Below are positions 12,074 to 14,169 of a DNA stretch of 14,169 nucleotides, one piece after another (positions within the stretch are counted from its first letter, which is position 1; each line of letters starts with the position of its first letter). Source of the DNA: a virus (lineage: Duplodnaviria > Heunggongvirae > Uroviricota > Caudoviricetes); the IMG/VR virus record IMGVR_UViG_2687453466_000005; one strand, given 5' to 3'. The position numbers and the translations under genes were made by a program. Under the pieces are notes generated by a model. That model was not told the origin of the DNA. It saw nothing but the letters and a program-made list of their open reading frames with translations, and did not search any database.

Positions 12074-12319
12074 ATGCTTCAAATGTTAACTCTTGAAGAA
12101 TGGGCTGCTGAAAAATACAGAAGTAATCCTCCAAGTGTGTCCACATTGCGTCGTTATGCTAAGCAGAATTTATTTTGTCCACCGGCCATGAAACAAGGCC
12201 GGTTATGGCGAGTGCGTGAGGACGCCGAGTTAGTTGGGGAGTTGGTAACACCTGTAATCAAGAAAAATGACTCATTACTTTTGCAACGGATTTTGAGTAA
12301 TGGCAGCCAGACCGCGTAA
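12074..12319 (+). CDS. xisE: Excisionase XisE (small HTH DNA-binding protein)
   Basis: 81-aa ORF with AAGGTGA RBS; overlaps the intE start by 20 nt. Confidence 0.75.
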   Translation: MLQMLTLEEWAAEKYRSNPPSVSTLRRYAKQNLFCPPAMKQGRLWRVREDAELVGELVTPVIKKNDSLLLQRILSNGSQTA

Positions 12320-13241
12320 GAATAATGTTTCAGTCCCTAACTTATATCCGCTTTATAGTAGGAAGGTAAATAAAGTCTATTGGCGGTATAAGCATCCAGT
12401 GACAGGAAAATTCCATGCTTTGGGAACAAACGAAGCTGAAGCTATCGCTATTGCCACTGAGGCCAACACTCGCCTGGCTGAACAAAGAACCCGGCAGATT
12501 CTGGCTATCAGTGACAGGATCGCAACCAGCAAAGGAAAGGCTATCACAACGTCAACCTGGTTAGATCGCTATCAAGCGATCCAGGATGACAGGCTTAAAA
12601 GTGGTGATATAAGACTCAACACCTATAAACAAAAAGCTAAACCAGTATCCTTGCTCAGAGAACGAGCAGGAATGAAGTTGATCTCAGCCGTTGATGTCAG
12701 AGATATAGCACAATTGCTTGATGAGTATATCGCCGCTGGGCGGCCAAGAATGGCACAAGTAGTTCGCTCCGTCCTGATTGATGTTTTCAAAGAGGCGCAG
12801 CACTACGGAGAAGTACCTCCTGGCTATAACCCAGCATTAGCCACTAAACAACCAAGAAGAAAAATTACCCGACAACGGCTGAGCCTTGAAGAATGGAAAA
12901 AAATCTTCGATATCGCAGACGCTACTCATCGTTACATGGGAAATGCCATGCTGTTAGCGCTGGTTACTGGTCAGCGGTTAGGTGATATTTCGCGTATGAA
13001 ATTTAGCGATATTTGGGATGATCATCTTCATGTCATTCAGGAAAAGACCGGGAGCAAAATCGCAATTCCTCTTTCTCTTCGCCTCAATGCGATTAACTGG
13101 AGTTTACGCGATGTAGTAGCCCGCTGCCGTGACTATGCAGTCAGTGCATACTTAGTGCATTTTTTTCGTTCAACTTCACAAGCAGAGCGCGGAGCGCAGG
13201 TTAAAGCCAATACATTGACGATGAATTTTGATAAAAACTAA
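12300..13241 (+). CDS. intE: Lambda-family tyrosine integrase IntE, apparently C-terminally truncated (313 aa; ends before the box II HxxR / His / Tyr catalytic motifs)
   Basis: N-terminal and core-binding regions plus the box I Arg (LVTGQRLGD) and the Lys (QEKTGSKIAIP) are present, but the ORF stops 64 aa after that Lys; all three forward frames have stops within about 55 nt downstream. Confidence 0.75.
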   Translation: MAARPRKNNVSVPNLYPLYSRKVNKVYWRYKHPVTGKFHALGTNEAEAIAIATEANTRLAEQRTRQILAISDRIATSKGKAITTSTWLDRYQAIQDDRLKSGDIRLNTYKQKAKPVSLLRERAGMKLISAVDVRDIAQLLDEYIAAGRPRMAQVVRSVLIDVFKEAQHYGEVPPGYNPALATKQPRRKITRQRLSLEEWKKIFDIADATHRYMGNAMLLALVTGQRLGDISRMKFSDIWDDHLHVIQEKTGSKIAIPLSLRLNAINWSLRDVVARCRDYAVSAYLVHFFRSTSQAERGAQVKANTLTMNFDKN

Positions 13242-13275
13242 AAAGTCCACTTTAAGCGAGCGGCGGACAGCCATA

Positions 13276-14169
13276 TCAGTTACTGGTAAGACGTGAAATA
13301 TCACAGAGAAGATCACCTAAAATCGATGAAAAGGACTCCCCATCTAGATTCACATTGATATTTTTGCCATGGAAAAGATATTGAAGCATCACTGTACATA
13401 GAGCTTCAATCAACTCTTCATTTCCGACAGGGTAGCATGAAATATTCGAATATATACGCTCATATGCAGCTGGGTGTGTATTTTGTAAACAGAAGTAATT
13501 TTCAACTTCTAAGCTTTGTATACAAAGCACTGCCGTAGCAATGCCAAGTGCACGTTTCTTTAATTCAGGAGCGGATTCATACAGGTTGCCTAATATCCAT
13601 TTTGTAGCATGTGAATCTGCTTCACGCTCCTCTTGAGTGGAGAATGCTGTAGTGACCAATGGATGCTGTAAAACAACATGACTTATTTCATGATGAAGAA
13701 TCCAAGCAATAGCACAAAGAAATATCTCGCTAGCAACTTGTGAGTCTTCGCTTCCTTGTAAATATGCTTCTGGCTTGGGACATTTTTTAGGCCATGATTC
13801 GCAACCTGTTGTTTGCAAGTTTTTCCTTGCCCATTTAAGAAGTTCATCAGACTTTTTAAGCCTATTTTTTCCTGTTAAATCAAAGTGCTCATCATTATTT
13901 TTCTGAGATTTGGAGTACTCTTGCGTAAAAACCCAAAAGAAATTGGAAAATGCCCAAATATATTCAAGTGAAGCTACTGTTAGAACTATTTCATGTGAAT
14001 TATTACTCTCATTCTTCCTGACTCGGATATTAAAACCAGGTTCACTCACAACTGAAATTATAATTTTTTTGTCGTCAACTATCGTTTTAAGATCTTGCTC
14101 CTTCTCTGGTGCAATCTTAAATGGTGATGAATTAATTGCTGAGAAAAGATGACAAATTGGTGAGCGCAT
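13276..14169 (-). CDS. lit: Lit zinc metalloprotease (phage-exclusion / abortive-infection protease that cleaves EF-Tu when triggered by the T4 Gol peptide)
   Basis: 297-aa ORF starting with ATG exactly at the window end; contains the HExxH zinc-binding motif (ILHHEISHVV); translation recognised as Lit; markedly AT-rich compared with neighbouring intE. Confidence 0.9.
   Translation of the reverse strand: MRSPICHLFSAINSSPFKIAPEKEQDLKTIVDDKKIIISVVSEPGFNIRVRKNESNNSHEIVLTVASLEYIWAFSNFFWVFTQEYSKSQKNNDEHFDLTGKNRLKKSDELLKWARKNLQTTGCESWPKKCPKPEAYLQGSEDSQVASEIFLCAIAWILHHEISHVVLQHPLVTTAFSTQEEREADSHATKWILGNLYESAPELKKRALGIATAVLCIQSLEVENYFCLQNTHPAAYERIYSNISCYPVGNEELIEALCTVMLQYLFHGKNINVNLDGESFSSILGDLLCDISRLTSN

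Follow-up and report, generated by a model that had tools for sequence, protein, structure and literature searches.

A 242-bp deletion in an Escherichia coli K-12 e14 prophage sequence removes the catalytic end of the IntE integrase and very probably prevents self-excision

DNA cleavage by tyrosine recombinases requires a tyrosine nucleophile together with an Arg-Lys-His-Arg-His pocket, and loss of the integrase is a textbook route to grounded prophages. Among the systems closest to the locus examined here is the integrase of phage lambda (PDB 1Z1B, 1Z1G, 1P7D, and 1AE9), whose plan of an arm-binding, a core-binding, and a catalytic domain is shared by full-length IntE, the integrase of the e14 prophage of E. 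coli K-12. Among the cryptic prophages of K-12, e14 is the only one for which mitomycin C-induced excision was found: the drug raises excision 356-fold, 13% of the cells lose the element, and overproduction of IntE is sufficient to cure it (PMC3105296). Furthermore, in evolution experiments with quinolones, e14 is repeatedly excised, yielding chimeric icd alleles (PMC13626634). Conversely, the Qin prophage of K-12 (integrase gene intQ) shows no detectable excision, its integrase being inactive (PMC3105296), and the grounding of prophages through integrase loss has been reviewed (PMC6379469). The e14 integrase gene itself is also encountered in a disrupted form, with an IS3 element inserted in intE (PMC11148124).

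The window, that is, the whole stretch of 14,169 nucleotides analyzed here (IMG/VR record IMGVR_UViG_2687453466_000005), was compared by megablast with 5,426 complete E. coli genomes and identified as the e14 region of E. coli K-12; by sequence and gene order, it is the e14 cryptic lambdoid prophage. Relative to MG1655, the window is colinear, with zero substitutions and exactly three deletions over 14.2 kb (Table 1), apart from which both the gene order (mcrA-pinE-...-xisE-intE-lit) and the sequence agree with the MG1655 element. The window extends from the ATG of ycgX at position 1 to the ATG of lit (reverse strand) at 14169. The icdC pseudogene, the displaced 3' end of icd, is present and marks one end of e14 inside the window, the icd-side end lying beyond the window limits. 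As a side observation, both window ends coincide with gene boundaries, such that ymfE, ymfD, and the icd-side att site fall outside. A TAG-recoded, mismatch-repair-deficient background such as C321.deltaA was considered as the source and rejected: the TAG stops with which ycgX, tfaE, ymfR, and ymfT end in MG1655 lie in stretches that are identical in the window.

Table 1. Features of the intE region, fate of the catalytic residues of IntE, and other differences between the window and K-12 (positions in the window)
Feature	Position	Strand	Remarks
xisE excisionase gene, 81 aa	12074..12319	+	Intact; overlaps intE start by 20 nt
Truncated intE ORF, 313 aa including new tail	12300..13241	+	Stop TAA 13239-13241
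intE codons 1-310	12300..13229	+	Identical to MG1655 intE
R226 (box I Arg; lambda R212)	codon 12975..12977	+	Kept
K249 (lambda K235)	codon 13044..13046	+	Kept
H330 (lambda H308)			Deleted
R333 (lambda R311)			Deleted
H353 (lambda H333)			Deleted
Y362, nucleophile (lambda Y342)			Deleted
Deletion 1, 242 bp (junction)	13229..13230		intE 3' end and spacer; no inserted bases, one-base (T) microhomology
New tail Asp-Lys-Asn and stop	13230..13241	+	Former intergenic DNA
Weak terminator-like hairpin 3' of lit, 5-bp stem and T-rich tail	13237..13263	-	Consensus match only
Residual intE-lit spacer, 34 bp	13242..13275		90 bp in K-12
lit, Peptidase U49, 297 aa	13276..14169	-	Intact, identical to K-12
Deletion 2, 1 bp (G8 to G7)	1027		Spacer upstream of iraM
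icdC pseudogene, displaced 3' end of icd	1530..1697	-	Marks one end of e14; same sequence as in K-12
mcrA region	1928-2760	-	Frameshifted by 1-bp deletion at 2240
mcrA ORF with HNH domain, 84 aa	1928..2182	-	
mcrA N-terminal ORF, 181 aa	2215..2760	-	
Deletion 3, 1 bp (CCC to CC)	2240		Inside mcrA

The largest of the three deletions affects the 3' end of intE. The K-12 reference protein (b1140, WP_000741310.1) is 375 aa long, in agreement with the length of about 375 aa given in the original prediction, whereas the window product has 313 aa, made up of IntE residues 1-310 followed by Asp-Lys-Asn; both the end of the ORF at residue 313 and its distance of 34 bp from the convergent lit gene had been read correctly. 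Alignment to the reference e14 defined the deletion endpoints and showed that the missing stretch corresponds to positions 2731-2972 of the K-12 locus (L001), comprising intE codons 311-375, the stop codon, and 44 bp of spacer. A deletion relative to K-12 had been anticipated and is present, although the proposed size of roughly 200 bp was too small: 242 bp are lost, of which 198 bp are coding (intE nt 931-1128) and 44 bp come from the start of the 90-bp spacer between intE and lit. The genes on either side, xisE and lit, as well as the icdC end of the element, are unchanged from K-12, and the putative terminator-like hairpin of lit is kept, with the deletion ending 7 nt past it. Because the difference is a deterministic one against an otherwise 100% identical reference, chance is not an issue.

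The lost codons are not encoded elsewhere in the window. All three forward frames close by about 13294, as had been stated: the intE frame stops at 13239, the second frame at 13216, 13222, and 13294, and the third frame at 13202, 13229, 13232, and 13253. When the whole window was searched with the lost 65 aa (tblastn) and the lost 242 bp (blastn), the outcome was weak, short matches of 8/24 aa at an E value of 0.03 and 15 nt at an E value of 0.63, respectively, none of them credible; the claim that the missing codons are not found downstream thus stands. Short repeats near the endpoints, ACATTGA (copies 237 bp apart) and TGAATTT (copies 231 bp apart), were examined as substrates for repeat-mediated slippage and rejected: since the spacing of these imperfect repeats does not fit the 242-bp junction, at which a single base is shared, simple slippage fails to account for the deletion. 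The junction carries no remnant of an FRT or lox site or of a cassette.

To establish which catalytic residues are retained, equivalences were counted along the alignment of full-length IntE with lambda Int, which extends end to end (PDB 1Z1B, E value of 3e-55). The box I Arg and the catalytic Lys, which had been placed at about residues 226 and 249, are both present, with TGQRLGD (R226) pairing with VTGQRVGD of lambda Int and QEKTG (K249) with QSKTG. The other four of the six catalytic residues are gone from the 313-aa product, just as predicted: the box II HxxR motif (H330 and R333) lies within the deleted 242 bp, and the second His (H353) and the Tyr nucleophile (Y362) are likewise deleted, leaving a product with no His beyond residue 287 and no Tyr beyond residue 284. 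No alignment places box II or the Tyr nucleophile within residues 250-313. By the full-length alignment, the window product ends at the equivalent of lambda F289, such that the counterpart of M290 to K356, which includes H308, R311, H333, and Y342 along with the C-terminal tail, is missing; by itself, the truncated product can be aligned with lambda Int no further than residue 266/356. The same picture emerges from the domain profiles. The arm-type DNA-binding domain (Arm-DNA-bind_1, PF09003) is present at residues 1-73 (E value of 9e-38), whereas the Phage_integrase profile (PF00589) is matched over positions 2-96 of 172 in the truncated product compared with 2-168 in full-length IntE. Pfam also assigned the upstream 81-aa ORF to the excisionases and the gene downstream to Peptidase U49 (Lit). 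By descent, the 313-aa ORF is thus assignable to e14 IntE, a tyrosine recombinase of the lambda family, from which the HxxR, second His, and Tyr features have been lost; judged by its sequence, it is an inactivated (pseudogene) allele, shorter than intact IntE and devoid of essential residues.

Could the shortened protein still recombine DNA, either through other residues or with its C terminus supplied in trans? An HxxR string does exist in it, HFFR at residues 287-290, along with tyrosines at 279 and 284, and the genome beyond the window could supply the remainder. As a candidate for box II, however, HFFR (window positions 13158-13169) was rejected: it falls in a segment that is inserted with respect to lambda Int, and full-length IntE contains it as well, next to the true box II, FHEQRSLS (residues 329-336). 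Moreover, Y279 and Y284 precede HFFR, so that both order and spacing are wrong, the 313-aa product has neither a His nor a Tyr after residue 287, and the window itself holds no credible coding sequence for the missing end. Nor are tyrosine recombinases known to occur in split form. Residual recombinase function is therefore considered highly improbable, the least probable of the explanations weighed here. It can be added that HFFR would be miscalled by a scan relying on motifs alone.

The preferred reading is that the truncated IntE is catalytically dead. The 313-aa product keeps its arm-type DNA-binding and core-binding domains as well as the early part of the catalytic domain, including R226 and K249. 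Given the established mechanism, a protein from which H330, R333, H353, and Y362, four of the six catalytic residues, are missing should be unable to cut or rejoin the att sites. Taken together with the published work on e14 excision, the mechanism of tyrosine recombinases indicates that SOS-induced, XisE-assisted site-specific excision of e14 would be abolished and that the element, with its intact lit gene, would stay locked at icd. It is thus very probable that this private 242-bp deletion, by removing the catalytic end of IntE, leaves e14 incapable of self-excision, a conclusion that fits the curing of e14 by IntE overproduction (PMC3105296). Both IntE activity and self-excision should accordingly be missing from a strain with this allele. 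The original prediction had gone further, describing the defense cargo, lit and the mcrA region, as fixed in the chromosome. For lit, the cargo is indeed intact; mcrA, in contrast, is not preserved, because its reading frame shifts after codon 174, splitting the N-terminal part of the protein from the HNH nuclease domain. Neither would fixation be absolute. The icd/icdC repeats, 165 bp in length with 12 mismatches (PMC11148124), suggest that e14 could be deleted without an integrase, through RecA-dependent icd/icdC recombination, and such loss would be rare.

Whether the deletion exists in a living strain was approached by searching for its junction elsewhere. A 50-mer was centered on the junction such that neither half attains the 28-base word of megablast, and it matched none of the 5,426 complete E. 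coli genomes, 280 of which carry a K-12-type intE-lit region. Positive controls performed as intended, with the IS3::intE junction recovered from 49 genomes by the same design and a 50-mer over the mcrA site from 330. No match to the junction 50-mer was found in GenBank phages either, GTDB representative genomes, JGI metagenomes, and IMG/VR contained no copy of a 36-mer junction pattern, and the exact 313-aa protein had no record among 153 billion gene positions. With neither the junction nor the exact protein present in any collection searched, the allele is private to the window sequence and may not exist in a living strain.

There is, consequently, an appreciable though minority chance that the deletion is nonbiological, arising from an error in assembly or consensus calling or from intentional editing of a K-12 sequence, and that the source strain makes a normal IntE of 375 aa. 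The uniqueness of the junction against so many genomes and collections and the unrecorded protein speak for this explanation, as does the fact that the window boundaries lie exactly on gene start codons. The other two differences from K-12 point the same way: the same 14 kb contain two single-base deletions and zero substitutions, a pattern like that of long-read consensus errors. One of these, the CCC-to-CC change in mcrA, occurs in 0 of the 330 complete genomes carrying the gene, and could represent a genuine loss of McrA or an error in the consensus. The other affects a G run at positions 1020-1027 upstream of iraM that is G7 in the window and G8 in MG1655 and DH1; G7 is shared with 157 complete genomes, including several assemblies of K-12 laboratory strains (DH5alpha, NEB 5-alpha, ER1709, DHB4, and C3026, for example), and reflects either a polymorphic homopolymer prone to slippage or undercalling that recurs in long-read data. 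On the other hand, a clean loss of 242 bp with no flanking repeat to collapse is atypical of consensus or assembly errors, the endpoints are biologically tidy, sparing lit and its putative terminator-like hairpin, and an engineered scar of the FRT, lox, or cassette type is absent. G7 was also considered as a marker of the DH1 lineage and rejected, as DH1 itself has G8 and G7 is spread over 157 assorted genomes.

If the deletion is a genuine allele, its position invites comparison with the known IS3 insertion. IS3::intE was detected in 49 complete genomes of laboratory strains (DH1, DH5alpha, NEB 5-alpha, XL1-Blue, S17-1, and ST18) as a 1258-bp insertion with a target duplication, AGC, at intE nt 936-938 (in DH1, L003 1436-2699). 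The two alleles are alike in several respects: the frame is broken at codon 312-313 by IS3 and at codon 311 by the window deletion, the same catalytic C terminus is expected to be lost, and lit and xisE are intact in both. They differ in that IS3 is an insertion, downstream of which the 3' part of the coding sequence remains, whereas in the window this part is deleted outright, and therefore no reversion is possible. The deletion starts at intE nt 931, 5 bp from the IS3 site (window position ~13230), a proximity that could point to a shared origin of the two alleles or to a fragile spot.

A common origin would imply that the window allele is real and goes back to IS3::intE as found in the MM294/DH1/DH5alpha lineage: a break or rearrangement at IS3 would have removed the insertion sequence and its flanks (5 bp to the left and ~234 bp to the right), after which the ends were joined via 1 bp of microhomology. 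The proximity gives this scenario some weight: for a random left endpoint in a gene of 1128 bp, the chance of falling within about 8 bp of the IS3 site is estimated at roughly 1-2%, and the site is occupied in 49 laboratory genomes. Against it, the junction holds no IS3 base, IS-mediated adjacent deletions usually retain the IS, and DH1 has G8 at window position 1027, where the window has G7. The orientation of the P segment is also that of MG1655 rather than that of DH5alpha, albeit the segment is switchable, and the window contains no lineage marker. With no IS3 base left and no lineage marker to draw on, the IS3 origin is a minority hypothesis and is judged unlikely. Less likely still is an elaboration of it, in which an IS3 break was repaired by microhomology-poor end joining, the resulting allele was kept because it locks e14 in place irreversibly, together with the intact abortive-infection gene lit, and the IntE remnant acts as an att-binding dominant-negative protein or regulator. 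If this were true, an SOS-induced remnant binding arm and core sites would act on the att sites without catalysis. More generally, binding of arm and core sites by the IntE remnant is a speculation, although one that may hold.

Set beside the systems described above, the window allele of IntE retains the first 310 residues and the DNA context of K-12 IntE, with xisE overlapping its start and lit convergent to it, and differs in the absence of residues 311-375, the Asp-Lys-Asn end, and a spacer shorter by 44 bp. The likeness to Qin is that of a prophage held in the chromosome through an inactive integrase; standard K-12 e14, in contrast to Qin, is still SOS inducible for excision, and the window allele would move it into the nonexcising class. 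In kind, this is ordinary prophage decay, or grounding, even if the particular allele has not been seen elsewhere, and intE loss has a precedent in the IS3 insertion that already disrupts the gene, at almost the same codon, in common cloning strains. The allele accordingly teaches no new lesson on recombinase mechanism or prophage biology. Its relevance is practical: in a strain with the truncated intE, the e14 locus should be stable and Lit-mediated exclusion of T4 kept, and the adaptive route via e14 excision and chimeric icd would be lost, which matters for tracing strain provenance and for reading laboratory evolution or phage resistance phenotypes.

Two minor features of the sequence complete the comparison. 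The Pin-invertible P segment (positions 3483-5321), which carries tail-fiber genes, has the MG1655 orientation in the window and is inverted, with 2 mismatches and 3 gaps, in the DH5alpha assembly CP025520. In K-12, the intE stop codon lies within an imperfect inverted repeat of 21 nt (76% complementary; L001 2913-2955), which is deleted in the window. No terminator-like T tract was scored at this repeat on the + strand, and no Rfam family matched in the window or the K-12 locus; the repeat could be a weak 3' structure of intE.
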